Assembly (NCBI GenBank): GCA_965367815.1
Contig: CBDUKN010000008.1
Coordinates: 28,237-92,236, forward strand
Direction: 5' to 3'
Length of the DNA stretch: 64,000 nucleotides
From: an uncultured Thermoprotei archaeon
Lineage (GTDB): Archaea > Thermoproteota > Thermoprotei > Thermofilales > B15-G2
The number at the start of each line of letters is the position of its first letter. Within the stretch, counting starts at the first letter, position 1. The notes beneath the pieces were generated by a model. It did not search any database, was not told the DNA's origin, and worked only from the letters and a program-made list of their open reading frames with translations. Position numbers and translations under genes: made by a program. This document shows, one piece after another, positions 24,699 through 39,078 of this stretch.

Positions 24699-25031
24699 TC
24701 AGCTCTTCTTTTTGCCTAAAACTACAAACGAAACTGTTTTCGCTATAGGTCTGCATTCTCCAATAACTACTTTATCTCCAACCTCTACTTCAACGCAAGG
24801 CGGTAAATGAGCATGTATTTTTCTTCTTCTGCGCTCGTATCTCTTGTATTTTGGAATATATACAAGGTACTCGTGAAGAATTACAGCAGTTTTATTCATC
24901 TTTTTCTTAATTAAAGTTCCCTCTAACAGAATTCCTCTAACAGATAGTGTACCGTGAAATGGGCAGTTTTTATCATTGCATGTTTTTTCAGGCTCCTCTA
25001 TCCAACTTATACCTACACTTCTTTTAGCCAT
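24699..25031 (-). CDS. rps17: Ribosomal protein S17 (uS17)
   Basis: CNDKNCPFHGTLSVRG...HAHLPPC..VEVGDKVVIGECRPIAKT. Confidence 0.9.
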   Translation of the reverse strand: MAKRSVGISWIEEPEKTCNDKNCPFHGTLSVRGILLEGTLIKKKMNKTAVILHEYLVYIPKYKRYERRRRKIHAHLPPCVEVEVGDKVVIGECRPIAKTVSFVVLGKKKS

Positions 25032-25258
25032 TACTTACCACCCCTTTCTCTCTTCAATTCTTCCTCCCTCTCTATTGTAAGGACCCTAGCTATATTTTTT
25101 CTCAAGATTCTTATTCTAGCCGGATTATCTAGCACTCCTCTGCTTTCCTGCATAGCTCTTAGCCTCATTAACTCAGTTTTAAGCTCTATTAGTAGCTTAC
25201 GTCGTTCTTCAGGAGTCATTTTTCTTATATCATCAGGCTTTAGCGCCATATATCTCAC
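25031..25258 (-). CDS. rpl29: Ribosomal protein L29 (uL29)
   Basis: 75 aa, LKTELMRLRAM..., located between S3 and S17. Confidence 0.88.
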   Translation of the reverse strand: MRYMALKPDDIRKMTPEERRKLLIELKTELMRLRAMQESRGVLDNPARIRILRKNIARVLTIEREEELKRERGGK

Positions 25259-25890
25259 CTAGCTGCTACTTGTTCAGGAGTCTTTATTTTAATATCTTCT
25301 GGAGTCTCTACAGGAGGCATTATCCTTACTTCAATTCCATACATTCCGGGTTTTAAAAGGACTTCTACTATAGCTTCATCTACGTAAACATCTTTTAACT
25401 GTCCGACTTTATATATCACTCCAGCAGTATACTTCTCGTATCTGGCTCTTTCAGATGTAAGCTTACCGCTAATAACTATTTCTGCTCCTCTAGCCCCAGC
25501 CTCCATAATTCTTCTTAAGGCGATAAATGCGGCTCGCCTAAACTTTACTCCTCGCGCTAATGCATTAGCTATGTGATATGCCACTATTTTTGCATTGAGA
25601 TAGGGGTTCGGTATTTCCATGACCTCTATTTGAGGATTATCTAGTCCGAATTTTGTTTGAAGTATTCTAGCCAGTTGCTTAATGTTTGCTCCGCGTCTAC
25701 CAATTACCATAAATGGTCTCTCTGCATAAATTATAACTCTTGTACCCAAGGGTGTACGCATTAAGTCTACTTTAACATATCCAGCTCTACAGAGAACTCT
25801 TCTCAAATACTCGTTAATTTCCATTCTGCGTAAACCGCGTATAATAAATCTCTTCTCGACATCAACCTTTTTCTCCAAACCAAAGCTCAT
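25255..25890 (-). CDS. rps3: Ribosomal protein S3 (uS3)
   Basis: KH motif VIGRRGANIKQL and synteny. Confidence 0.93.
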   Translation of the reverse strand: MSFGLEKKVDVEKRFIIRGLRRMEINEYLRRVLCRAGYVKVDLMRTPLGTRVIIYAERPFMVIGRRGANIKQLARILQTKFGLDNPQIEVMEIPNPYLNAKIVAYHIANALARGVKFRRAAFIALRRIMEAGARGAEIVISGKLTSERARYEKYTAGVIYKVGQLKDVYVDEAIVEVLLKPGMYGIEVRIMPPVETPEDIKIKTPEQVAAR

Positions 25891-25895
25891 ACTAC

Positions 25896-26357
25896 CTACC
25901 TCTCTTCAAGAGCTATTTCTACATGAACTAACTGCTGGAAATAGGGTGTTGCTCTACCAAACGCTCTCGGAATATATTTTCTAATTTTAATACTTTTGTG
26001 AGCAGCTGCATGAACTACGTAGAGATTCGATGTGTCTAGACCTTTATAGGCAGCATTTGCTTCAGCATTCTTAAGTACTTCGAGTATCGCTTTAGCTGCC
26101 TTAACGGGCCATCGAACAGCAGGCCATTTATCTACAGCTTTATGATGCGGCACCTTCTTTTTGTATGTTCTGAACGGTATTGCTTGCTTCATTTTAATTA
26201 CGTCTACAAGTATCTTCTTAGCTTCCTCCAATTTTCGGTTTCTTATGAAATGACATATTTCTACTGCGTGCTTATATGATATTCTTAAGTCTCTACCAGC
26301 TGCGATTGCAGTTCTCACGGGATCCAAGTCCTGTCGTGAAAAGTGCCATCTCGTCAT
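25896..26357 (-). CDS. rpl22: Ribosomal protein L22 (uL22)
   Basis: ...ISYKHAVEICHFIRNRKLEEAKKIL...PRAFGRATPY... Confidence 0.92.
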   Translation of the reverse strand: MTRWHFSRQDLDPVRTAIAAGRDLRISYKHAVEICHFIRNRKLEEAKKILVDVIKMKQAIPFRTYKKKVPHHKAVDKWPAVRWPVKAAKAILEVLKNAEANAAYKGLDTSNLYVVHAAAHKSIKIRKYIPRAFGRATPYFQQLVHVEIALEER

Positions 26358-26433
26358 AATATACGGGAGAAAAAAATAATGGTAAATTTAAATTTTTCTA
26401 TCTCTAGTTAGCTAATACCGGGAGGGGACCCTA

Positions 26434-27294
26434 ATGTCTCTTAAAGCATATGTTAAGTTAACCCGTCTGGACCACGGCGTACTAAGCGTTATTGGGGTTC
26501 TCGCAGGACTCCTAACAAATTGTTCAAGCAATGTATCGGTACTAAAGATCACTATCGCAGTAGTAGTTCCTCTCTTCATTGAAATGGGGCTTTTTGCGTT
26601 AAATGACTATTTTAACATCGAAGAAGACAAAATAAATGCACCCGACAGGCCTCTTGTTCGAGGAGATATCTCGCCAAAAGCTGCACTTACTCTAGGAATA
26701 GCTGCTTTGCTTATAGGCTACACAGCAGCTCTATTAGCTATATTAGAAGGCAGAATGCTTTCTATAGTTTTGATAACATTGATCATCATAATAGGAGTAC
26801 TGTACGACGCAAGAATAAAGACTCTAGGGCTTATCGGCAACCTGATAGTATCATTCTCTACAGCGTCCACGTTTATTTATGGAGCATTATTAGCCAAAAG
26901 TATTGTGGACATAAATATGGCTACTTGGATAATCTTCATTACGGCATTCCTATCGTGCCTTGGAAGAGAGATACTTAAAGGCGTTAGAGACTACTTGGGA
27001 GACAAAAAAGCTGGAGTATTAACTCTTGCAGTAAAGTATGGCACTCAACGAGCAGTGGCAATATCGAGTATTTTGATAGTATCCGCAATAGTAGCCGCGT
27101 TATCAAATATCATTTATGTGAAAAAACCAGCAGTTTATACAGTTTTATTAATTCCTGCAGTAATGCTTTTCGCTGTAGCAATAGCGATATCCTTCAAAAA
27201 TCCAGATGATGTCAAGCTCGCAGAAAAAGCCAGAAAATATACACTATATGCTATGGGTTTAGGGCTAATAGCCTTTTTAGCAGGAATGATCTAA
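26434..27294 (+). CDS. UbiA-family prenyltransferase (DGGGP-synthase-like)
   Basis: Polytopic membrane protein with NDYFNIEEDKINAPDRPL (Asp-rich motif 1). The specific substrate is inferred only. Confidence 0.8.
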   Translation: MSLKAYVKLTRLDHGVLSVIGVLAGLLTNCSSNVSVLKITIAVVVPLFIEMGLFALNDYFNIEEDKINAPDRPLVRGDISPKAALTLGIAALLIGYTAALLAILEGRMLSIVLITLIIIIGVLYDARIKTLGLIGNLIVSFSTASTFIYGALLAKSIVDINMATWIIFITAFLSCLGREILKGVRDYLGDKKAGVLTLAVKYGTQRAVAISSILIVSAIVAALSNIIYVKKPAVYTVLLIPAVMLFAVAIAISFKNPDDVKLAEKARKYTLYAMGLGLIAFLAGMI

Positions 27295-27332
27295 ATTAAT
27301 TTGGGTAAATATCTTAGAAAGTATAGAGAACT

Positions 27333-27740
27333 TCACTTAAGTGGAACATACATGCTTGACCTTGTTGCTTTAAGTCCAGGCTCTCCGTGTTCTACTTTCT
27401 TTGTTGTTAAAGCGAATTCTCCAAGGTAATGGCCGATCATCTCAGGCGTTATTGTGACAGGGACAAATTCTTTTCCATTATACACTCCTATAGTGACACC
27501 TACCATTTCCGGCAATATGATCATATCCCTTTCGTGTGTTTTTATGAATACTTTCTTCCCTTCTTTCATTAGCTTCTTTGCCTTTCTTATTTTTTCGAGC
27601 AATCTTCGCTTTTCGTAAGACAACCCTCGCAGTAAGCTTCTGCGCTGCCTTGCTGGGAGCAGTTTAATGAATTCATCCATTGGCATTTTTAATAGTTCTT
27701 CGAAGGTATATCCCCTGTATCTAAATTCCTTATAGCTCAT
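27333..27740 (-). CDS. rps19: Ribosomal protein S19 (uS19)
   Basis: ...[30 protein letters not shown]. Confidence 0.93.
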
Positions 27741-27813
27741 AGTCTTTCTCCCTATTACACTCTATGTTATAAATCTTACTCATTTTAACCAAGCGATACT
27801 ACGTAACAGCATG

Positions 27814-28536
27814 CTAGCCTTTTCTTCTGCCTGTTCTTCTTGGTGCTATGTGACCCACTTTCTGACCTGGAGGCGCTGTACGCGGTACAGGTGTACCTCC
27901 TTTGGGGTGTGCTCCTCCGCCGTGTGGATGCGCGTAAGCACCCATGGCTTTTCCTCTAACTGTTGGATACTTCCATGCCTTAGATCTAGATAAGTGGTAC
28001 TTTTTGCCAGCCTTGAGGAATGGTTTTTCTACGCGTCCTCCTCCGGCGACCACACCTATTGTGGCTCTGCACCTAATGTTTATTTCCTTAGTTTTTCCCG
28101 AAGGTAACTGTACAAGTGCTTTACTTCCGCTTTTTGCGAGAAGAATAGCATATGTTCCGCTAGACCTAGCTATTTTTCCTCCGTCTCCAGGCTTAAGCTC
28201 TACGTTACATATCTTAGTACCTTCAGGTATTGAATACAGAGGAAGTATGTTTCCATTTCTAGGCGCGGCGTTCTCACCATACTCGATTATTTGACCTACA
28301 TAGAGGCCTTCAACAGCTACAGTAAGCATTTCTGTTTTATCTTCGAAAACTATTTTTACCAATGGTGCCCCTCTGCCGGGGTCATGAAGTAGCTCAACTA
28401 CCTTACCTTTAAGCCCTCTTTTTATCTCCTCTTCATTAAATACCCTATATTTGGCTGGTCCTACTTTCTTCCATCTAGGAGACCTAAATACAGACCCTCC
28501 GCGCCCTCTCCTTTGTACTATTAGTCGTTTACCCAT
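27814..28536 (-). CDS. rpl2: Ribosomal protein L2 (uL2)
   Basis: ...GGGRVEKPFLKAG...VRGKAMGAYAHPHGGG. Confidence 0.96.
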   Translation of the reverse strand: MGKRLIVQRRGRGGSVFRSPRWKKVGPAKYRVFNEEEIKRGLKGKVVELLHDPGRGAPLVKIVFEDKTEMLTVAVEGLYVGQIIEYGENAAPRNGNILPLYSIPEGTKICNVELKPGDGGKIARSSGTYAILLAKSGSKALVQLPSGKTKEINIRCRATIGVVAGGGRVEKPFLKAGKKYHLSRSKAWKYPTVRGKAMGAYAHPHGGGAHPKGGTPVPRTAPPGQKVGHIAPRRTGRRKG

Positions 28537-28547
28537 TTTTCACCACC

Positions 28548-28838
28548 TTACAGTAATCCTAATCTAGATGCTACTTCCTCAGCCTTATACTCAGGAGCTA
28601 GCTTTACATAAGCTTTTTTCTCGCCTTCAGGCGTTATAAGTGTATTGACTTTAACTACCTTTACTCCAAATAGCTTCTCTACTGTCTCTCTTATTTGATG
28701 CTTAGTAGCTTTGCGATGAACAATAAATACTAAAGTATTCTCTTTTTCAATTTTAGTCAAAGCTTTTTCAGTCATTAGCGGCCTTATAATTATAGAGTAA
28801 TAATCAATACCCATAATTATCCCCCTACATAGTTTCAA
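28548..28838 (-). CDS. rpl23: Ribosomal protein L23 (uL23)
   Basis: [11 protein letters not shown]...[14 protein letters not shown]. The likely start is the internal Met at 28814. Confidence 0.9.
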
Positions 28839-29622
28839 ACACTAGCTGCATAATTCTGTCTTCATATTTCTTCTCGAGAATTTTAAGAGCAGATTTTGTC
28901 CATAATGTAAGTCTACCGGGATGCCCGCCGGGAGCAAGATGCATTGTGCTTAGCTGGTCTACTGTGACTACGTCTACACCTGGAAGATTTCTCGCAGCTT
29001 TAATTATAGGTGCTGGAGACGGTATTACTATGAGCACGCTTTTCGGCTTCTTATAACGCCGCCCTCTCATTTTACCTTTACCTGCTCTTACTTTTCGGCC
29101 TTTTTTAGCTCTTTCAACATCTTCCCACAAGCCTAGCTTCATGAAAAGTTCTCTGACTTCTCTTGTTTTCTCTAATTTAAGTATGTCGTCTACAACTATA
29201 AGTGGAATATGAGGCACTTTATCTACTACATGGCCTCTTTTTGCAACAATATCCTTATTTGCTGTAGCTGCAATAGCTGAGAGTATAGCCAGTTGTCTTT
29301 CCTTTTTGTTTACTTCTTCATGAATTACTTTTTCAACTACTGGTGGGTGAGCTCTTCTTCCTTTAACGGTCATTGGTGCAAATGCTGCTCTCGAAGACCC
29401 CTTAATTCTCGGTACACGAGCTACTCCGTAGCCTACTCCCCAGCTTTCTGCTGTTGTTCTTTTACCTGCCATAGGGTCTCTTCCCTGCGGCTGTACTCTA
29501 GCAGTAAAAGCTGACAAAAAGTCTCTTCTTATGACATCTATTCTCAGTGGAATATCGAAGATCTTAGGTCTTTCTATTTCCTCTACAACTTTTCCTTCAA
29601 GGTCATATACTGGGATCTTCAC
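28825..29622 (-). CDS. rpl4: Ribosomal protein L4 (uL4)
   Basis: ...[29 protein letters not shown]... Confidence 0.92.
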
Positions 29623-30707
29623 TTAACCTCACCTTTTATAACAGCATTATGAACATACACTATTTTAGGTGCCTCCTTTACCGGAGGCGGAACTACAGGT
29701 CTTATTGGGTATCTAAGCTTTATTAGTCTCTTTACAGGTCCTGGTACAGATCCTTCCATTAATATGAAATCGTTTCGTATAACACCATAGTGTTTAAGAC
29801 CTCCTTTTGGCACAACATTGAACTCCTCTATTTTCTCTTTGGGAACGATCTTAAGTATGCGTTTGTTATACTCTGTTCTCTGGTGGAAGCCCATTTGTCC
29901 GGCTCTCGGTATCATGAACATTACTCCTGGTTTTTGAGGACCTATGCTTCCTGTACGTCTGTGTCCCTTTCTATGTTTGTGCCACCGCGGCAGTATTTTT
30001 ACTCCAAATCGCTTGACTACACCTTGTGTACCTTTACCTTTCGTTATGGCTATAACATCTACAAGCTGTCCCTCCTTGAAAACTTCGGTTACTCTGAGCT
30101 CTTTTCCGAGTTTTGAGAGAGCGTATTCTAATGCTTTCTGCGGATCCCCTCCTATGGCTATTTCAAAAACTTCAGGCTTCTTTTTCCCTATAGTAGTTAA
30201 CCTTGGCTGAGTACACACAACTAGCCGGACGCTGCTTATTTTTTCTTTAACACTCCCTATTTTCTTGAGCTGTTTTTCGAAACGCTCTTCTGCTTTCTTT
30301 TTCTGTTCGCCATCTTCGCTAGTTTTCTTATCTTTAAGAGAATAGAATACAGCTGCTTTTGTTACGGTAAATTTGCGCTTAATGTCCTCTGGAAGCTCTT
30401 TTGCCCAGACCTCTCCCAGACACTTGTATCCGTAGGGAGTCTTCTCATAAACTCTTATAGCACAAACTATGAGCGGAGGGCATTCGATTATAGTAGCGGC
30501 TTTAGCCACTTCTTTTCCATAGAAAGGATGATTAGGGTTGTTCTCGATGTATATTAAGTGGGTCATGCCTGCCTTATATCCTGCAAATGCGAGAGGTACT
30601 GTTTGATCTACTTTAGGCCAGCGTCTGATTCTGGCAACTATACTTTTGGCCCTTACTCTTGGATAAACTCCCATTGATCCTCTGCGAGGCCTATGATCTT
30701 TAACCAT
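29619..30707 (-). CDS. rpl3: Ribosomal protein L3 (uL3)
   Basis: [13 protein letters not shown]...[15 protein letters not shown]...[10 protein letters not shown]. Confidence 0.94.
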
Positions 30708-30764
30708 TTTGATCCCCCAGAGCTGAAGTGAGAGTAGGAAAGGACGGTAATAAATATTTTGCCT

Positions 30765-31604
30765 TTAAATAGCGTTGAGTATCGATAATACTATCAACAC
30801 AGCCTCTTCAGTTCTCACAGTTTTTGTACCTTGGTAAGGTACAAAATTTACAATTAAATCACAAACACTTTCTGGATCTACTCCCTCTTCCTTTAGTATC
30901 TCACATATACCTTTATGAGGCCCGCCAAAAATAATTAGAACTTTTCTGGTGCGGCTAAACAGTTTTGTTTTTAGGTCTTCTTCCACCTCTCCTATCATAA
31001 CTCCGTAGCGAGAAGTCCCTAAAACAAAGTCAGCATTGCTTATCTTAATTGCATTAAGTAGAGACTCCGCCTTAATTACATCATAACCCCAATAGACAGG
31101 AACTTCCTCTTTTGAAAGTATACGACAACAGTCAACGTCTACGGTAACTCTTGAAAAAAGAGGCCTAGCAGGGCTACAAGTAATCGGCTTATCTAAACCA
31201 ATGTAGACAGTAGACTTATTTTTCACAGGATCGTTTTCGATAACTACACCTTCTCTATACTCGTGTCCTTTAACAATAATTCTTTCAGACTTTAACGGGT
31301 GATGAGGAGTGCGGAGAGGTGGCAATACTCCTGCATACTTCAACTGCTTTATTCTAGGAAATAAATACTTTCTTAAATATTGGGGACATTCCATATACTT
31401 TAGTATACTGTAAATAATTTCTTGGTAATAGCTGGCTTTTTCACCTTCTTTATAAACATAAATTTCATCTACCCTAAAAATGGCAGCTGCTCTCCCTACT
31501 ATTCCTACTTTAGTTGTTTGTTCTCTTAGATCTCTGCATTCACTAATTAAAGAAGATGGAATAGCAATTGCCCACTCGACTTTACGTTTAGGAGGATGCT
31601 GCAT
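30765..31604 (-). CDS. Putative SPOUT-superfamily RNA methyltransferase (DUF171/COG2106-like)
   Basis: 279 aa. This family conservatively sits upstream of L3 in archaea. The N-terminal sequence is WAIAIPSSLISE...TKVGIVGRAAAIFRVDEIYVY. Family assigned by recall. Confidence 0.5.
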   Translation of the reverse strand: MQHPPKRKVEWAIAIPSSLISECRDLREQTTKVGIVGRAAAIFRVDEIYVYKEGEKASYYQEIIYSILKYMECPQYLRKYLFPRIKQLKYAGVLPPLRTPHHPLKSERIIVKGHEYREGVVIENDPVKNKSTVYIGLDKPITCSPARPLFSRVTVDVDCCRILSKEEVPVYWGYDVIKAESLLNAIKISNADFVLGTSRYGVMIGEVEEDLKTKLFSRTRKVLIIFGGPHKGICEILKEEGVDPESVCDLIVNFVPYQGTKTVRTEEAVLIVLSILNAI

Positions 31605-32099: not shown

Positions 32100-33542
32100 T
32101 TAGCTTTTGACTAGTCTTCTGAGTAATGGATATGCCTCTAGAGCTCTTTCTTGAGCTATCATTGCCTGATACTGGACTAATATGCCTGCTAAAAGCAGTA
32201 TACCTATGCCAGAACCTATAACGCCTAGAATGTCGCCTATAACGCTTATTATGGCTACTATGATCGAACTGAGTACTGTTAGTATAGGTATGTATTTTCG
32301 CAGTAGATATGCTATTATTTTAGGTGAATGCCTAAATCCGGGTATCTGCATTCCAGCGCTAACTAATTGCTCTGCCTGAGACTTGGGATCCATTCCAGTA
32401 AGTTCTACCCACAGTATTCCGAAGAGAATACAGAGCCCTATTGTTATTAGTGAATACAGCAGTACGTGAATAGGGTCTTCTAACACTGAAGTTAATCCAC
32501 GTGGCGGAGTTATGTAATATATTAGGCAGCCGGGTAGAGGAACTAGTCTTCCTTCTTTAACTTCAAATTTAGCTATTAAGTTAAGCCATGTATTGCTATT
32601 GTCCCTATTGAATCGAGACCATAGTACTTGTGAAAACATATAGATATCGGTGTACAGTATGCTAGCAAAGATTAATGGGATTATTGACACATAAAGGAAT
32701 TTAAGCGGTATTTTAGCTTTAAGGCCCCTGTATTTTGAGAGAGAAACTCCTACTTCGACCTGCATGCTTTCCATGTAAATTACTAGTATGAAGAAAACTA
32801 TCATCGTAGCGAAGCCGACTATGTCTGGCAGCCCTTTTCTTACTAATACAGTCGAGACAACAGACCAATTTCCTGTATTTGTAGCATTTAATATGGCAAC
32901 TGTTAACGCTGGAATTACTCCTAGAGGCAATCCGTCAGCAAAGGGACCTATGGGCGAGAATATTTGCCAGAATATTTGCTGAGCAATTCCGGCTGCAATG
33001 AATAAGTTTACTCCGCTTCCTATACCCCATCCTTTCTGTATCATCTCGTCCATCAGAATAACTGCAAGGGATGCCATCATTAGTTGGGCAAATATGAGCG
33101 CAGCTGATGTAATTGCTAGCACTCCGTAAGCTCCTCCTAGAATGAAAGCTAAAGCCTCTACTGCGGCAAAGACTATTGCTAAAAGTTTCTGCGCCCCGCT
33201 AAAGAACGCTCTATCCTCGGGTTTGCTAAGATCTAGTTCCAGAATCTTGCTTCCAACTAGAAGTTCCAATATAATACCGCTTGTAACTATAGGTCCTATG
33301 CCGAGTTCTGCTAGTGTTCCTTTTCTAGAAGCTAGTATTATTCTGAAAAAGAATAATTCCTCGTAGCCTCTAGTTCCATAAGGTATTCCGTACAGAGGTA
33401 CTTCACACATTATTAAGTACACTATCACTACTATGGCTGTCCAGAATAGCTTCTCTCTAAGCGTAACAGGTCTTCGTGGCCTTGGAACTTCAGGCAGAAT
33501 ACTGAATGCTGACCTAATAACGTCTTTTACAGATACAGACAT
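32100..33542 (-). CDS. secY: Preprotein translocase subunit SecY
   Basis: 480-aa polytopic protein with ...SRKGTLAELGIGPIVTSGIILELL..., downstream of L15. Confidence 0.95.
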   Translation of the reverse strand: MSVSVKDVIRSAFSILPEVPRPRRPVTLREKLFWTAIVVIVYLIMCEVPLYGIPYGTRGYEELFFFRIILASRKGTLAELGIGPIVTSGIILELLVGSKILELDLSKPEDRAFFSGAQKLLAIVFAAVEALAFILGGAYGVLAITSAALIFAQLMMASLAVILMDEMIQKGWGIGSGVNLFIAAGIAQQIFWQIFSPIGPFADGLPLGVIPALTVAILNATNTGNWSVVSTVLVRKGLPDIVGFATMIVFFILVIYMESMQVEVGVSLSKYRGLKAKIPLKFLYVSIIPLIFASILYTDIYMFSQVLWSRFNRDNSNTWLNLIAKFEVKEGRLVPLPGCLIYYITPPRGLTSVLEDPIHVLLYSLITIGLCILFGILWVELTGMDPKSQAEQLVSAGMQIPGFRHSPKIIAYLLRKYIPILTVLSSIIVAIISVIGDILGVIGSGIGILLLAGILVQYQAMIAQERALEAYPLLRRLVKS

Positions 33543-33552
33543 GATATCACCT

Positions 33553-33996
33553 TTAGCTCGCTGTAATAACTTTGCCTCCAGCTGCTTTAACTTTCTCTAT
33601 AGCTTTCTCTGACGCCATTCTAACAGATATTACCACAGGTTTGGATATTTTTCCTCCCCCTAGAAGCTTGTTGTATCCTAATTTTCCTAGGTCTACATAG
33701 TACTTGTTTTCTTTCATTTCAGCCAACCCCTTTTCCATGAGTGCATCTAGCATAGAGTCTAAGTCCTTGAGATTTATTGCCTTAACTTGAGGTTTTATAG
33801 CAGGAGGCTGAGTAAATCCATGTTTACCATACCAGTCTGGCGCATATTTGATAACCCATGTCCACATGTGTTTATGATATCCTGCGTGTCCTCTTCCTCC
33901 TCTGCTTCCACTTTTTCTGTGCTGACCTACTCTCCCCCAACCATGAGTTCTCCATCCTCTGAGACTTCTAGATTTTTTCTCCCTTCTGACTACCAT
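33553..33996 (-). CDS. rpl15: Ribosomal protein L15 (uL15)
   Basis: ...GWGRVGQHRKSGSRGGRGHAG... Confidence 0.92.
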   Translation of the reverse strand: MVVRREKKSRSLRGWRTHGWGRVGQHRKSGSRGGRGHAGYHKHMWTWVIKYAPDWYGKHGFTQPPAIKPQVKAINLKDLDSMLDALMEKGLAEMKENKYYVDLGKLGYNKLLGGGKISKPVVISVRMASEKAIEKVKAAGGKVITAS

Positions 33997-34106
33997 TAAA
34001 TCACCACTAGATTAGGTCTGAAAGTAAGGCTTCATCGGTGCTATATAGCTTTTTCGTAATGTTCACCTTCAGCAGTCAACCTATTTCTCTAAGACATAGC
34101 GGAAAA

Positions 34107-34114
34107 TTTATAAA
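34107..34114 (+). promoter_or_regulatory. Candidate TATA box (TTTATAAA) for the inverted S5-L30 unit
   Basis: An AT-rich octamer sits ~50 nt upstream of the S5 ATG, and GGTGG lies just before the ATG. Based on position only. Confidence 0.3.
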
Positions 34115-34164
34115 GCTTAACCATAATGTGCCTTAGCTGAGAGTATTTAAGGAAAGGTGGTATT

Positions 34165-34803
34165 ATGAGTGTACTAGACACATGGGTACCTAAAACAAGA
34201 GTAGGGAGACTGGTAAAGGAAGGAAAAATAACTTCAATAGACGAGATATTCGAGAGAAACTGGCCCATTAAAGAGGTCGAGATAGTTGATATACTCTTAC
34301 CAGACCTTAAACATGAAGTACTCAACATAAACTTGGTGCAGCGCCAGACGGATAGCCCGCTTTAAGCGGGCCCGTAAGCTGGCGAAATAAGTAGATTTCA
34401 GGCAGTTGTAGCTGTCGGAAACGAGGATGGTTACGTAGGAGTGGGTGTAGGCAAAGCTAAACAAGTAAGACAGGCAATTGAAAAAGCTATCATAGATGCT
34501 AAATTAAACATCATTCCTGTAAGAAGAGGATGCGGAAGCTGGGAATGCTTATGCAATACTCCTCACAGCGTGCCCTTTAAAGTCAAAGGAAAATGCGGAA
34601 GCGTTGAAATAATTCTAATTCCAGCACCCAAAGGCGTTGGTTTGGTGGCAGGCGAGACTGCAAAAACAGTACTGCGATTAGCTGGAATTAAGGATGTTTG
34701 GACACGAACTCGAGGCGAAACGAGAACAACTATTAACTTCGCTAAAGCCACATACGAAGCCTTAAAGAAGACATATGCTATAAAGACCCCAGATAGGTGG
34801 TAA
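34165..34803 (+). CDS. rps5: Ribosomal protein S5 (uS5), two exons: 34165..34353 + 34378..34803 (204 aa after removing a 24-nt BHB intron)
   Basis: Exon 1 ends ...NLVQRQTD. Exon 2 begins [30 protein letters not shown]... and is in frame only after the intron is removed. The unspliced frame stops at 34363-34365. Confidence 0.9.
34354..34377 (+). other. Bulge-helix-bulge (hBHBh') intron in the S5 pre-mRNA
   Basis: Outer helix CGCCAG/CTGGCG, central helix ACGG/CCGT, 3-nt bulges ATA and AAG, inner hairpin GCCCGC-TTTAA-GCGGGC. Canonical cut positions restore the uS5 frame. Confidence 0.8.
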
Positions 34804-34806
34804 ACT

Positions 34807-35277
34807 TTGGGTAAAAGACTAGCTGTTATACGTATAAGGGGAACAGTAGGTGTAAGAAAAGACATAGAGTATACACTAAGGTTACTTAGGCTAGTAAGAA
34901 AATTTCACGCAGTAGTAATCGACGATAGACCGGACTACCTTGGTATGCTACAGAAGGTAAAAGACTATGTTACATGGGGAGAAATAGATGCAGAAACACT
35001 AGCCGAACTTTTAAGAAAAAGAGGTCGTCTCGTAGGAAATAGAAGACCTACAGACGAAGATGTCAAAAAGTTAGGATATAGCAGTATAGAAGAGTTTGCC
35101 GAAGCAGTAATAGAGTTTAAAGCAGAACTGAGCGACATACCTGGACTAAAACCTGTATTTAGGCTACATCCTCCTAAAGGAGGATTTAAGGGAACAATAA
35201 AGAGAATGTACGGCGACGGTGGAGAAACAGGGTATAGAGGCAAAGATATTAACGAGCTACTACGAAGAATGATTTAA
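34807..35277 (+). CDS. rpl30: Ribosomal protein L30 (uL30)
   Basis: TTG start. [25 protein letters not shown]...[10 protein letters not shown]. Confidence 0.9.
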
Positions 35278-35891
35278 GAGCTCTTCTTGCTTAATAAACT
35301 TTCGTATTTTGAAACAATTTTACTTTTAACCTCTGTAAAGTGACTCACTATATTTTCTGGCCGTAGTCCTCTTTTCAGATACTGAGAAAACTGTCTTTCA
35401 TATAAGCTAAGATCTTTCTCCAGCAAGTATTTCGCGTAATCTTCTATGTGTTTCCCTGATATTCTATCTTCCGATGGAAGTACTTCAGGAGAACATGGAA
35501 CTTTAAGTCCGGCATCGAGAGCTCCCTTTATTACAGCAAATACTTTAGACCCCTTTGTCGGTCTATGTAATCCTATATCGGGTATAGCTTCTTCTATTCC
35601 TTTAAGTCTAGCCTTATATCCTATTATCAACCCCGTTAAGTATGCTGCAGCAGTATTTGAGCAGTCGCCTAGCCAGCCATATTTTTTAGCTAGTACTTTG
35701 GAAGATATACCTACTATTGTCTCATCTCCTTCTGGTTTCGCTTTAACTATTTGTGCTATAATGTATTTGAGAGTTTTTCTTATAACTAATCTTGGTTTGT
35801 CGGAGAGTATCATTTTTCTTCTCTTGTAGTAGTTTGTTAGACCTAGTCTTCTTCTGCGGAAGGGTACTTTATAGCGCCCGTTTCGCGCCAT
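35274..35891 (-). CDS. rpl18: Ribosomal protein L18 (uL18)
   Basis: [22 protein letters not shown]...[15 protein letters not shown]. Confidence 0.92.
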
Positions 35892-35896
35892 AGCTA

Positions 35897-36337
35897 CTAC
35901 CTCTCAAGCAATTTGTGTTCCTCAATATAAGCTTTTAAGTGAGATAGACTTCTAAAGTATCCTCCTTTAGCTAGACGATAAAGTCTCCTGTAAGTTCTTG
36001 GACTAATTTTTCTTCTAGCTCTAAGTTCCTTTAGGTATCGTCTCATAGCTCTGATTTTAGCGACCCATATCTCTTTTTCATCAAATCTAGGTCCTTTTCT
36101 CTTTCCTGGTCCTCTTCTCCTGCCTTTTTTCTTCTTTAGGTGCCTGATTCTTGCTCTTACTCTAGAATTACCTTTTTTAGGCTTGACTCTAATAACTCCT
36201 TCTTTAATAAGCTTTTTAACTTCTTCTCTTGTGATTACTGTGACTAGCTCATTATGTTTAGTAGGGTCAATCCATATTCTTGATACACCTACTCCCAATA
36301 TTTCTGACGCTAACCTTTTTAGATGATCAACAGACAC
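35897..36337 (-). CDS. rpl19e: Ribosomal protein L19e (eL19)
   Basis: [20 protein letters not shown]...[12 protein letters not shown]. Confidence 0.92.
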
Positions 36338-36348
36338 TACTCCTCACC

Positions 36349-36786
36349 TCATAACTGAGGATTTAATATTTTTATATTTCGTTTTTTAGCCTCTTCAATT
36401 ATTTCCATTCTTTTTCTTTTACCAACAGTAGACGCTATTCTAATAGCTTCTCTATCAGGATCTATGTAGTCCAAATCTTTAACGTTATATACAATGACAT
36501 CCCTGAAGCCCGAAGGATGATATCCTCTAACCCTTTTAGGTCCTCTGTATCCGATTTTTACTCTCGGCGGATAACCTTTAACTTGTAATCGTATTTTGTT
36601 GTCTAAGCCTTTAGGTCTCCTCCAAGAGTCTCCTATACGCTTAAATCTCCATGCATCCATACGCATGAATCGAGGTAGTTTATTCTTGAGCTGCCTGCGG
36701 ATAATTAGCATTTTCTTTTCTAACGGTGTAAGCTTAGGTTTCACCTTTACTAACTCCTCAACGTTTTCACTCATTTTCTCCACCAC
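36349..36786 (-). CDS. rpl32e: Ribosomal protein L32e (eL32)
   Basis: ...FMRMDAWRFKRIGDSWRRPKGLDNKIRL...GYRGPKRVRGYHPSG. Confidence 0.9.
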   Translation of the reverse strand: MVEKMSENVEELVKVKPKLTPLEKKMLIIRRQLKNKLPRFMRMDAWRFKRIGDSWRRPKGLDNKIRLQVKGYPPRVKIGYRGPKRVRGYHPSGFRDVIVYNVKDLDYIDPDREAIRIASTVGKRKRMEIIEEAKKRNIKILNPQL

Positions 36787-36791
36787 CTATA

Positions 36792-37184
36792 TTAATAAAC
36801 ATAAGCTACTAAGACTCCACCAATACCTAACTTTTTAGCCTCTTTGTGAGTCATTACGCCTTTAGACGTCGACACTATAAGTACTCCCATGTTTCTTGCA
36901 GGGAGATACTTTTCTTCCCATTCTTCAAATTCATTTTTCTTTACAGGAAATCTTGGTTTAATAACTCCGCACTTATTAATTCGACCTAAAAGTTGTACTC
37001 TTAGCTTACCAGACCTACCATCATCTATGTATTCTATTTCGCCGATATATCCTTCTTTCTGCATTACTCTTAGTACCTGAGCTATGAACTTTGAAGCCGG
37101 ATATATTATACACTCCTTATGCCCTCTTGCTTCATTGTTCACTATTGTTGCCAACGCATTTGCGAGAGTATCCATGAGCACCAT
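36792..37184 (-). CDS. rps8: Ribosomal protein S8 (uS8)
   Basis: [22 protein letters not shown]...GVLVAYVY. Confidence 0.93.
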
Positions 37185-37227: not shown

Positions 37228-37392
37228 CTACATATACTTCTTGAAACCTATTTGCTCGGCTACTTCTCTAAAACATCTTCTACATAGGTTTAAGCCATAC
37301 ATTCTAATTAAAGCTTCATGAGTCCCGCAGCGCCTACATCTTCTTGAACCTTTTCCATATTTTCTTATTTTAGGTGAACGAATTTTACCCAT
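37228..37392 (-). CDS. rps14: Ribosomal protein S14 (uS14, zinc form); 54 aa, below the ORF-track cutoff
   Basis: My own translation is [54 protein letters not shown]. It has CxxC...CxxC motifs and lies between L5 and S8. Confidence 0.88.
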
Positions 37393-37966: not shown

Positions 37967-38710
37967 TTACTTCACCTCGAAAACGCTTATTTCTGGTTTT
38001 TCATCACCTATTAAAAATACATAGTCCATTATAGTTCTTAATTCCTCTCCATTATCTGTTTCAAGTGAAACAATAGCCCTTGACTTCTTAAAGACTTGAA
38101 TTACTTCCTTTATTCTTCCCACTCTTCCTACGTTGTTGCCTCCTATAATTATCGCGTACTTACCTTTCTCGAACTTGAAGTGTCCAAGTAGTTCTTGTCT
38201 AGGTATACTTATCTTAATTGTGTCGTACGTCTTATAGACATCTTCTTCAGGATTTCTTGGATTAGATACTCTAATTAAATGGTTCCTACCATCATGAAGA
38301 TTTAGCTGAATGTGCCCTCCTTTAACTGTTGTTTTATTTTCTATTCTGCATAGTTTAAAGCCGGCTTTCTCTTTAGATATTGGTAGTAAGTCGAGGAATT
38401 TAACAGGATGGGGCATTACTCTGAAGTATTCTTCCGTGGGAACTATTTCAATCACATCCATTAATCCTATGGGGAACTTGTAGTCTCTACGTACCTTTCC
38501 ATCGACTTTAACTTTGCCTTCTCCTAGAATCATTCTTGCTTCACGCATAGTTTTGGCATACTTTAAGTAGTCTCGGATTACTATTCCAAGTGGAATACAG
38601 CGATCTATGGGGTGAGGGCCTGGACTAGGCTTTACTGTCCAGTGATACTCTTTCCTAAGTATCTTCCAGAACCATGGAGCTGCATGACGGGTTAAATGCC
38701 TAGAGGTCAT
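37967..38710 (-). CDS. rps4e: Ribosomal protein S4e (eS4)
   Basis: HLTRHAAPWFWKI..KEYHWTVKPSPGPH... Confidence 0.93.
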   Translation of the reverse strand: MTSRHLTRHAAPWFWKILRKEYHWTVKPSPGPHPIDRCIPLGIVIRDYLKYAKTMREARMILGEGKVKVDGKVRRDYKFPIGLMDVIEIVPTEEYFRVMPHPVKFLDLLPISKEKAGFKLCRIENKTTVKGGHIQLNLHDGRNHLIRVSNPRNPEEDVYKTYDTIKISIPRQELLGHFKFEKGKYAIIIGGNNVGRVGRIKEVIQVFKKSRAIVSLETDNGEELRTIMDYVFLIGDEKPEISVFEVK

Positions 38711-39078
38711 ACTCCCACCTTCTTTCTTTCAATTATTCTTTTTCTGTAGGAATCCGATAAATCAAGTTTTGTTATCATGACTTTAGATGGATGAATAGGT
38801 ACATGCACTGTAGTTCCGTCTGCTTTCTGTCTAGTTGCTCCCTCTACGTAAATTCTTCTTTTCTTTAAGCTTACTCTGATAACTTTGCCTTCATGGCCAG
38901 CGTAGTCTCCTCTTAGTATTAAGACAGCATCTCCTTTTCTAACAGGAAGTCTTTTGATACCTAGTTCTTTTCGTAGAGGCTCAGCTAGCTTTGCTGTCAT
39001 GTCTTTTTGCCTTTTGTGAAGTGGTGCATTGAAGTAAAGATATCTCTGTTTACGAGGTTGCTTAGGTGAGCGCCCCAT
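38707..39078 (-). CDS. rpl24: Ribosomal protein L24 (uL24)
   Basis: The KOW region is VRKGDAVLILRGDYAGHEGKVIRV. The start is taken at the internal MGRSPKQ, which is preceded by GGAGGT; the track ORF extends to 39138. Confidence 0.9.
   Translation of the reverse strand: MGRSPKQPRKQRYLYFNAPLHKRQKDMTAKLAEPLRKELGIKRLPVRKGDAVLILRGDYAGHEGKVIRVSLKKRRIYVEGATRQKADGTTVHVPIHPSKVMITKLDLSDSYRKRIIERKKVGV

Follow-up and report, generated by a model that had tools for sequence, protein, structure and literature searches.

The genes of ribosomal proteins S5 and L30 were found on the plus strand, in the middle of a minus-strand spc-type ribosomal protein cluster, in a 64,000-nt stretch of contig CBDUKN010000008.1 from an uncultured Thermoprotei archaeon of hot sediment (assembly GCA_965367815.1); this whole stretch is referred to below as the window. 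The arrangement very probably reflects an ancestral, inherited inversion of the S5-L30 pair, by which the former cluster became three transcription units. According to the Pfam assignments, the uL24, eS4, uL5, uS14, uS8, eL32, eL19, uL18, uS5, uL30, uL15 and SecY families are all neighbours, as in an spc-type cluster; the canonical one-strand order is broken, with S5 and L30 on the opposite strand and uL6 and uL14 absent from their canonical positions. The L30 protein showed 100% identity to a 50S ribosomal protein L30 of "Thermoprotei archaeon". A preliminary description, made from the sequence of the window, had placed S5-L30 on the plus strand between minus-strand L24...L18 and L15-SecY, which the open reading frame (ORF) list and Pfam bear out, and both the overlap of the L30 and L18 stop codons on TTAA and the 168-bp divergent spacer were confirmed in the sequence (Table 1). 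Its reading of the pair as inverted relative to the canonical order also holds, as a two-breakpoint inversion of exactly these two genes, and the close relatives L006, L010, L096 and Thermofilum pendens keep that order (loci of relatives are denoted by three-digit numbers).

According to the proposed explanation, a simple two-breakpoint inversion at the L18/S5 and L30/L15 boundaries would have occurred in an ancestor of the window lineage, and the flipped S5-L30 segment would have been inherited since. The cluster would then comprise a minus-strand unit from L24 to L18, a plus-strand S5-L30 unit and a minus-strand L15-SecY unit, the latter two with predicted promoters, each consisting of a B recognition element (BRE) and a TATA box, placed back to back in the 168-bp spacer; the L30 and L18 transcripts would converge, with overlapping 3′ ends. 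S5-L30 was probably a self-sufficient unit before the inversion, so that its orientation would be nearly neutral, which would explain the occurrence of both orientations among close relatives. The inversion is of an ordinary rearrangement type, in a region of exceptional conservation.

Independent Assemblies

The same arrangement was present in GenBank contig QMRV01000004.1 (72.9 kb, assembly GCA_003649445.1), which matches the window, and in a separately assembled Logan contig of run SRR7051322. It was also present in contigs from other samples and assemblers, both where the identity of L30 was 89% (ENA ERZ584659 and Logan SRR6823442) and where it was 83–84% (Logan SRR7051321 and GenBank QMSB01000002.1, isolate B15_G2). 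A misassembly would be expected to be non-reproducible and usually bounded by inverted repeats, whereas the inversion was reproduced across GenBank, Logan, ENA and JGI assemblies. A search for inverted repeats at the borders of the segment (33997–34164 and about 35277) revealed none; repeats able to mediate the inversion were also sought, and the sole match joined the ribosome-binding regions of SecY and S5, which resemble each other.

The scenario that the preliminary description had named as its refutation, namely, that an assembler had placed the 1.1-kb segment in the wrong orientation, is favoured by the origin of the contig from a metagenome-assembled genome and by the lack of a recorded S5 protein product for it. 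However, a Logan assembly made independently has the identical map, as do at least 11 other lineages whose contigs come from different projects and assemblers, there are no inverted repeats at the borders able to mislead an assembler, and the junctions evolved as genuine ones do (overlapping stop codons and conserved divergent promoter-like blocks). The probability of an artefact is therefore negligible, and an assembly inversion is effectively excluded by the independent assemblies and by inheritance.

Distribution and Phylogeny of the Inversion

The distribution of the inverted pair was studied using an L30 alignment search against one genome per GTDB species, and L19e, L18, S5, L30, L15 and SecY were placed by tblastn in the best 80 loci. 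S5-L30 was collinear in most of these loci, which came from many archaeal phyla; apart from the inverted lineages listed below, nearly all species representatives had the collinear order. The pair was inverted in the window clade (the window, L003 and L005/L008), as well as in L023, L018 ("Thermofilum sp. ex4484_15"), L075, L064 and L071 ("Infirmifilum sp."), the loci L064 and L071 being short; further look-ups added L091/L092 (an Infirmifilum-like group of Thermofilaceae), L094 and L095. The inversion is neither recent nor genome-specific, being common to at least 11 lineages in several well-supported clades. The collinear state was found in the relatives L006/L007, L010 and L096, in the closed genome of T. 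pendens Hrk5 (CP000505.1), in another Thermofilum and in the nearest outgroups. Collinear L006 and T. pendens share the unusual context of the locus (no L6 or L14; SecY followed by a helix-turn-helix (HTH) gene, a methyltransferase gene and L3) and are therefore true close comparators. The possibility that the inversion is a simple shared trait of Thermofilaceae was ruled out by the T. pendens closed genome and the other collinear Thermofilum. A different rearrangement was seen in the sister loci L038 and L060 of a distant archaeal lineage, where L30 alone is inverted and S5 is collinear with L18; this is an independent event. L060 is filed as the bacterial Candidatus Deferrimicrobium, and its contig is probably mis-binned.

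Phylogenetic analysis was performed using distance-based neighbour-joining bootstrap trees of 11 concatenated proteins (2,105–2,225 columns). The window clade and the group of L023, L095 and L094 each had a bootstrap of 100%, and L075 grouped with L018 (bootstrap 97–100%). A Thermofilaceae clade (bootstrap 100%) contained both states, with inverted L091 (and L071) as sister to the collinear Thermofilum pair; Thermofilum and Infirmifilum are placed in the same family by the NCBI taxonomy. Since both states occur inside one clade with a bootstrap of 100%, at least two events are required: an old inversion may have been undone exactly in Thermofilum, or the two genes may have flipped as a unit on three or four separate occasions. 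In both cases, the window carries an old inversion that it inherited. A single inverted clade had been suggested by the first six-protein tree, a view that was later revised. A 12-nt match (GTGGCCGCGCTC) between the spacers of L023 and L091 was considered as a sign of common origin and was not relied on, as L092, the sister of L091, lacks it.

The presence of both orientations within Thermofilaceae could also be expected if S5-L30 were a programmed DNA switch, flipped by a site-specific recombinase within populations. This is highly unlikely, since the segment has no flanking inverted repeats, no recombinase gene was found among the gene calls within about 10 kb on either side, each species among the contig groups read had one orientation, and the junction sequences differed between lineages. 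A xenologous replacement, in which a foreign S5-L30 was inserted in reverse and the native copy was lost, has an equally slight probability: for each relative, the identities of S5 and L30 parallel those of L18, L19e, L15 and SecY; the concatenated trees give the same supported clades with or without the extra genes; and the GC content is 41.6% for S5-L30 and 41.0% for L15-SecY.

The L30-L18 junction varies among the inverted lineages. The 4-nt overlap of the stop codons is shared by the window, L003, L094 and L095, whereas L005/L008 have a 6-nt gap and L023 a gap of a few nucleotides; in L075 the genes lie about 320 bp apart, and in L091 they overlap by 18 nt. As judged from these comparisons, the TTAA overlap is a later compaction and not a scar of the inversion. 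Nor is the overlap a footprint of the precise inversion that the preliminary description had inferred, given the 6-nt gap in the sister lineage with 83% identity and the junctions of L075 and L091.

Divergent Spacer and Predicted Transcription Units

The spacer shared by L15 and S5 had been described as AT-rich, with TATA-like boxes in both directions. The boxes were located (TTTATAAA facing S5 and CTATATAG facing L15), but the enrichment is mild, the GC content being 36.3% in the spacer and 38.7% in the whole window. In the three tRNA genes of the window, a purine-rich BRE stands directly before an 8-nt A/T box that ends 21–24 nt before the mature 5′ end, and the blocks facing S5 and L15 have the same layout of a BRE and an 8-nt A/T box. 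In archaeal promoters, such a box is expected about 22–27 nt upstream of the transcription start. Transcription is predicted to start at about 34137 (+) for S5-L30 and at about 34018 (−) for L15-SecY, and both start codons are preceded by a Shine–Dalgarno sequence of the GGTG type (GGTG ahead of the S5 ATG and GGTGA ahead of the L15 ATG).

Octamers consisting of A and T alone are common by chance at 36% GC; therefore, conservation is the actual test of these boxes. The spacer is 168 bp in the window, and 167 and 324 bp in the two other lineages compared, the longest being that of L005. Alignment of whole spacers with MAFFT misplaced the S5-side block, the L005 spacer being 156 bases longer, and a comparison anchored at the start codons was used instead. 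Between the window and L005, the 62 nt adjoining L15 were conserved at 78% and the 62 nt adjoining S5 at 71%, compared with 16% in the middle of the spacer and 36% at 4-fold synonymous sites, which are saturated; over the three lineage pairs, the corresponding ranges were 73–90%, 71–87%, 16–47% and 36–58%. The spacer is thus composed of two conserved flanks and a fast-evolving middle, a pattern that is expected of two functional back-to-back promoters and supports their prediction. The proposal that S5 and L30, once uncoupled, need a promoter of their own agrees with the presence and conservation of the BRE/TATA-like block facing S5, which would serve as such a promoter, and the same applies to the block facing L15-SecY.

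The boundaries of the segment may be older than the inversion. Collinear L006, L010 and Thermofilum have TATA-like boxes in the short L18-S5 spacer, and collinear Thermofilum and L010 have them before L15 too. Many collinear lineages (L010, L096, L013, L019, L036, L039, L049, L025 and others) carry an additional 0.2–1.3 kb between L30 and L15, and this junction seems to be a repeated weak point; in L096, the insert consists of two minus-strand genes encoding 114 and 183 aa with no Pfam match. The TATA-like boxes of the collinear relatives, together with the extra L30-L15 sequence, suggest that L18/S5 and L30/L15 were already transcription-unit boundaries before the flip. The L30-to-L15 spacers of collinear Thermofilum are unusually long, with 130 bp in L088 (6087–6216) and 258 bp in L093 (6086–6343), and each has a TATA-like box resembling the one before L15 in inverted L091 (CGCCGC..TAAxTTTTTAA). 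Such a box may have been left behind by a re-inversion, or it may be an internal promoter that was there before.

Several observations weigh against the interpretation of the locus as an inherited inversion with three transcription units. The inverted state is known from assembled contigs, and the closed genome examined, that of T. pendens Hrk5, is collinear. The backbone of the tree between the clades has a bootstrap of 15–64%, which leaves one inversion with a reversal in Thermofilum and three to four independent inversions both compatible with the data. The A/T octamers that are common by chance belong here as well. Five runs of four T residues (T4) follow the L30 stop codon within 100 nt, whereas no good oligo-T tract follows that of L18, where one T4 occurs at +123; because the termination signals after L18 are weak, transcripts of the L18 unit may read through, antisense, over L30-S5 into L15-SecY. 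If this were the main route of expression, L15-SecY would be transcribed largely from the L24...L18 unit across L30-S5, and the TATA-like boxes would be incidental, for which the weak termination after L18 and the expected frequency of AT-rich octamers could be cited. We consider this improbable, since the L15-side block is 73–90% conserved while the adjoining spacer and the synonymous sites are randomised, the block matches the layout of the tRNA promoters, and head-on transcription through the highly expressed S5-L30 would presumably be costly.

Intron in the S5 Gene

The S5 gene of the window consists of two in-frame pieces, separated by an element that folds into a bulge–helix–bulge (BHB) structure of the canonical hBHBh′ form, in which the BHB is flanked by helices (−33.6 kcal/mol, z = −2.66; Table 1); L003 and L005 share this fold. 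Cleavage of a BHB usually takes place after the second nucleotide of each bulge, a rule that follows from how tRNA introns at position 37/38 are arranged. Applied to S5, this rule removes 34354–34377 and gives the junction ...VQRQTD/AGEISRF.... The spliced protein of 204 aa matches PF00333 over positions 1–65 of 65 (96 bits), whereas exon 2 alone gives a partial match to the S5 N-terminal domain (34.6 bits), and it aligns without gaps to the S5 proteins of relatives. In L005/L008, the intron is 23 nt long and exon 2 is out of frame, so that excision at the BHB-predicted sites alone restores the same junction. At the nucleotide level, 11 other lineages have GAY GCN GGN GAR uninterrupted exactly at the insertion point of the window clade. 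Because of the full Pfam match, the gap-free alignment, the frameshifting 23-nt variant and the exact insertion relative to these 11 lineages, the predicted intron is regarded as genuine and probably spliced out. The intron is restricted to the window clade, being present in the window, L003 and L005/L008.

No full-length S5 with an identity above 82% was found in a collection of 5.8 billion proteins; therefore, the S5 of the window clade has never been called intact, and the record of the source contig lists no S5 product. Splicing of archaeal mRNA is established for cbf5 (introns of 22–31 nt) and HVO_1309 only (PMC2738675; PMC10485636, a review of 2023). No report of an intron in S5 was found in the searchable literature, in which most subscription journals are not covered. 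If spliced as predicted, S5 would join cbf5 and HVO_1309 as the third protein-coding target of splicing in archaea. The cbf5 introns of Crenarchaeota, which are processed by the tRNA splicing endonuclease, are likewise short BHB elements in a protein gene of Thermoproteota and, like the 23–24-nt element of S5, need precise excision to restore the frame (PMC2738675, PMC10485636). The S5 intron differs in its host gene, which encodes a ribosomal protein, and in its strict hBHBh′ structure as opposed to the relaxed motif of cbf5, and its splicing is predicted from the sequence.

It had been suggested that the inversion and the mRNA intron may be linked. A causal link, in which one of the two events gave rise to the other or favoured its selection, accords with the occurrence of both features in the window clade; however, eight further inverted lineages (L023, L018, L075, L064, L071, L091/L092, L094 and L095), that is, those outside the window clade, all have an uninterrupted S5, and the closest intact S5 (82% identity, L094) sits in an inverted locus. 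Such a link is therefore very unlikely. Because S5 lacks the intron in these eight lineages, the inversion predates the intron and is far wider, and the co-occurrence of the two in the window is a coincidence of descent. A second S5 intron was considered for a Thermofilaceae protein cluster with two adjacent "partial S5" entries and was rejected, as the pieces overlap in sequence and represent an assembly gap.

A gene of RtcB, the RNA ligase that would be expected to seal the exons once the EndA endonuclease has cut the BHB, lies from about 44807 onward (−) on the same contig, about 10 kb from S5. Genes of Cdc6/Orc1 and of two RFC subunits also lie nearby; a replication origin may be close, and, if it is, S5-L30 may be transcribed head-on to replication. 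A 100-nt tRNA gene was identified by Rfam at 51812–51911 (+) and was unreported by ARAGORN, and the two remaining tRNA genes are likewise long (88 and 96 nt). These lengths suggest that the tRNAs bear introns, possibly at a non-canonical position, which fits an intron-rich lineage.

Significance of the Rearrangement

The order L18-S5-L30-L15-SecY serves as a near-universal synteny anchor, and it is heritably broken in a whole group of Thermoproteota, with both states in one family. The inversion is visible in public genomes; no published description of it was found in the searchable literature, which leaves out most subscription journals. Collinearity should not be presumed in this group when orthology is assigned by synteny, bins are checked or operons are predicted. 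The flipped pair is also a natural test of how much co-transcription matters, and the back-to-back blocks give specific predicted transcription starts. The intron hides S5, a standard marker gene, from gene callers, and completeness estimates and marker-gene phylogenies for the window clade would lose it. The mixed states in Thermofilaceae and the BHB intron of S5 are the parts most worth attention, the intron being more notable than the inversion.

A broader interpretation, which we hold to be plausible with a chance slightly short of even, is that S5-L30 is an orientation-free, self-promoted cassette in Thermofilales-like archaea, which has been flipped more than once (by exact reversion in Thermofilum sensu stricto or by several independent inversions at the same two boundaries), with L30 alone flipped in another lineage; the cluster would be three autonomous transcription units, and the S5 of one sub-clade would be a third BHB-spliced archaeal protein gene and the first ribosomal one. 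If this were true, the "most conserved operon" would really be three autonomous units in this part of the archaeal tree, and S5 would be the first ribosomal protein gene dependent on splicing of the tRNA type.

Gene Context of the Cluster

The coordinates of the features of the locus are given in Table 1.

Table 1. Genes, junctions and predicted elements of the S5-L30 locus (positions in the window)
Feature	Position	Strand	Basis or remarks
L24	38707–39138	minus	ORF and Pfam
S4e	37967–38710	minus	ORF and Pfam
L5	37399–37965	minus	ORF and Pfam
S14	37228–37392	minus	ORF and Pfam
S8	36792–37184	minus	ORF and Pfam
L32e	36349–36786	minus	ORF and Pfam
L19e	35897–36337	minus	ORF and Pfam
L18 (uL18), final gene of the upstream minus-strand unit	35274–35891	minus	PF17144 and PF00861; stop TAA is the reverse complement of 35274–35276
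TTAA, stop codons of converging L30 and L18	35274–35277		
L30 (uL30)	34807–35277	plus	PF00327; TTG start 3 nt past the S5 stop; Shine–Dalgarno AGGTGG ahead
S5 (uS5), two in-frame pieces	34165–34803	plus	ORF and Pfam
S5 exon 1, 63 codons	34165–34353	plus	Ends ...VQRQTD
S5 predicted BHB intron, 24 nt	34354–34377	plus	In frame; two stop codons inside
S5 exon 2, to the stop codon	34378–34803	plus	Starts AGEISRFQ...
BHB outer helix, 6 bp	34342–34347 with 34379–34384	plus	CGCCAG/CUGGCG
BHB central helix, 4 bp	34348–34351 with 34372–34375	plus	ACGG/CCGU
BHB 3-nt bulges, opposite strands	34352–34354 and 34376–34378	plus	AUA, AAG
BHB inner hairpin, 7 bp	34355–34371	plus	
Divergent spacer, L15 start codon to S5 start codon, 168 bp	33997–34164		
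Predicted S5-L30 promoter	34101–34114	plus	BRE-like GGAAAA and TATA-like TTTATAAA (34107–34114); ends 50 nt before the S5 ATG
Predicted L15-SecY promoter	34041–34056	minus	BRE-like CGAAAAAG and TATA-like CTATATAG (34041–34048); ends 44 nt before the L15 ATG
L15 (uL15)	33553–33996	minus	PF00828
SecY	32100–33542	minus	PF00344 and PF10559; ORF

The ribosomal clusters of the window lineage are rearranged in several ways beyond S5-L30. According to the gene calls of the cluster, uL6 is absent between S8 and L32e (36786–36792) and uL14 is absent upstream of L24 (39138–39230), and the same gaps occur in T. pendens and other relatives. The S10 block (L3, L4, L23, L2, S19, L22, S3, L29 and S17; about 24807–31604) lies downstream of SecY and not upstream of L24, with a small HTH gene and a Methyltrn_RNA_3 gene between SecY and the block; the order of SecY followed by the S10 block is common to T. 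pendens, L006 and Vulcanisaeta. The cluster had been called otherwise collinear, and the absence of L6 and L14 and the displaced S10 block had gone unnoticed. A gene of a UbiA-family prenyltransferase between S19 and L22 (about 26434–27294, +) is a second opposite-strand break in the ribosomal array.

The canonical archaeal S10-spc cluster, known from a DPANN genome and other archaea (L3-L4-L23-L2-S19-L22-S3-L29-...-S17-L14-L24-S4e-L5-S14-S8-L6-L32e-L19e-L18-S5-L30-L15-SecY; PMC10833476), has the same families in the same relative order for L24...L18 and L15-SecY, with L30 directly after S5 as in the window. The window differs from it in the flipped strand of S5-L30, the absence of L6 and L14, the position of the S10 block past SecY and the opposite-strand UbiA gene between S19 and L22. 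T. pendens Hrk5 (CP000505.1) has the same reduced context (L24-S4e-L5-S14-S8-L32e-L19e-L18 ... L15-SecY-HTH-methyltransferase-L3) and, as in the window, TATA-like boxes ahead of S5 and L15; however, its S5-L30 is collinear, its S5 has no intron, and a gap of 130 bp separates L30 from L15 in place of the shared divergent L15/S5 spacer. In Heimdallarchaeota, spc clusters are split or dispersed into segments, for example, L32e-L19e-uL18-uS5-uL30-uL15 (PMC10833476), which shows that in some archaea the "universal" cluster may exist as pieces that differ in location and are transcribed separately. The breaks in Heimdallarchaeota fall at other junctions, as translocations, with S5-L30 still linked to both L18 and L15, whereas the pair of the window was inverted in place.

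The longest L24 ORF begins 20 codons upstream of an ATG at 39078, which is preceded by GGAGG; L24 gene calls of relatives are 123 aa long, and the true start of L24 is probably this downstream ATG.

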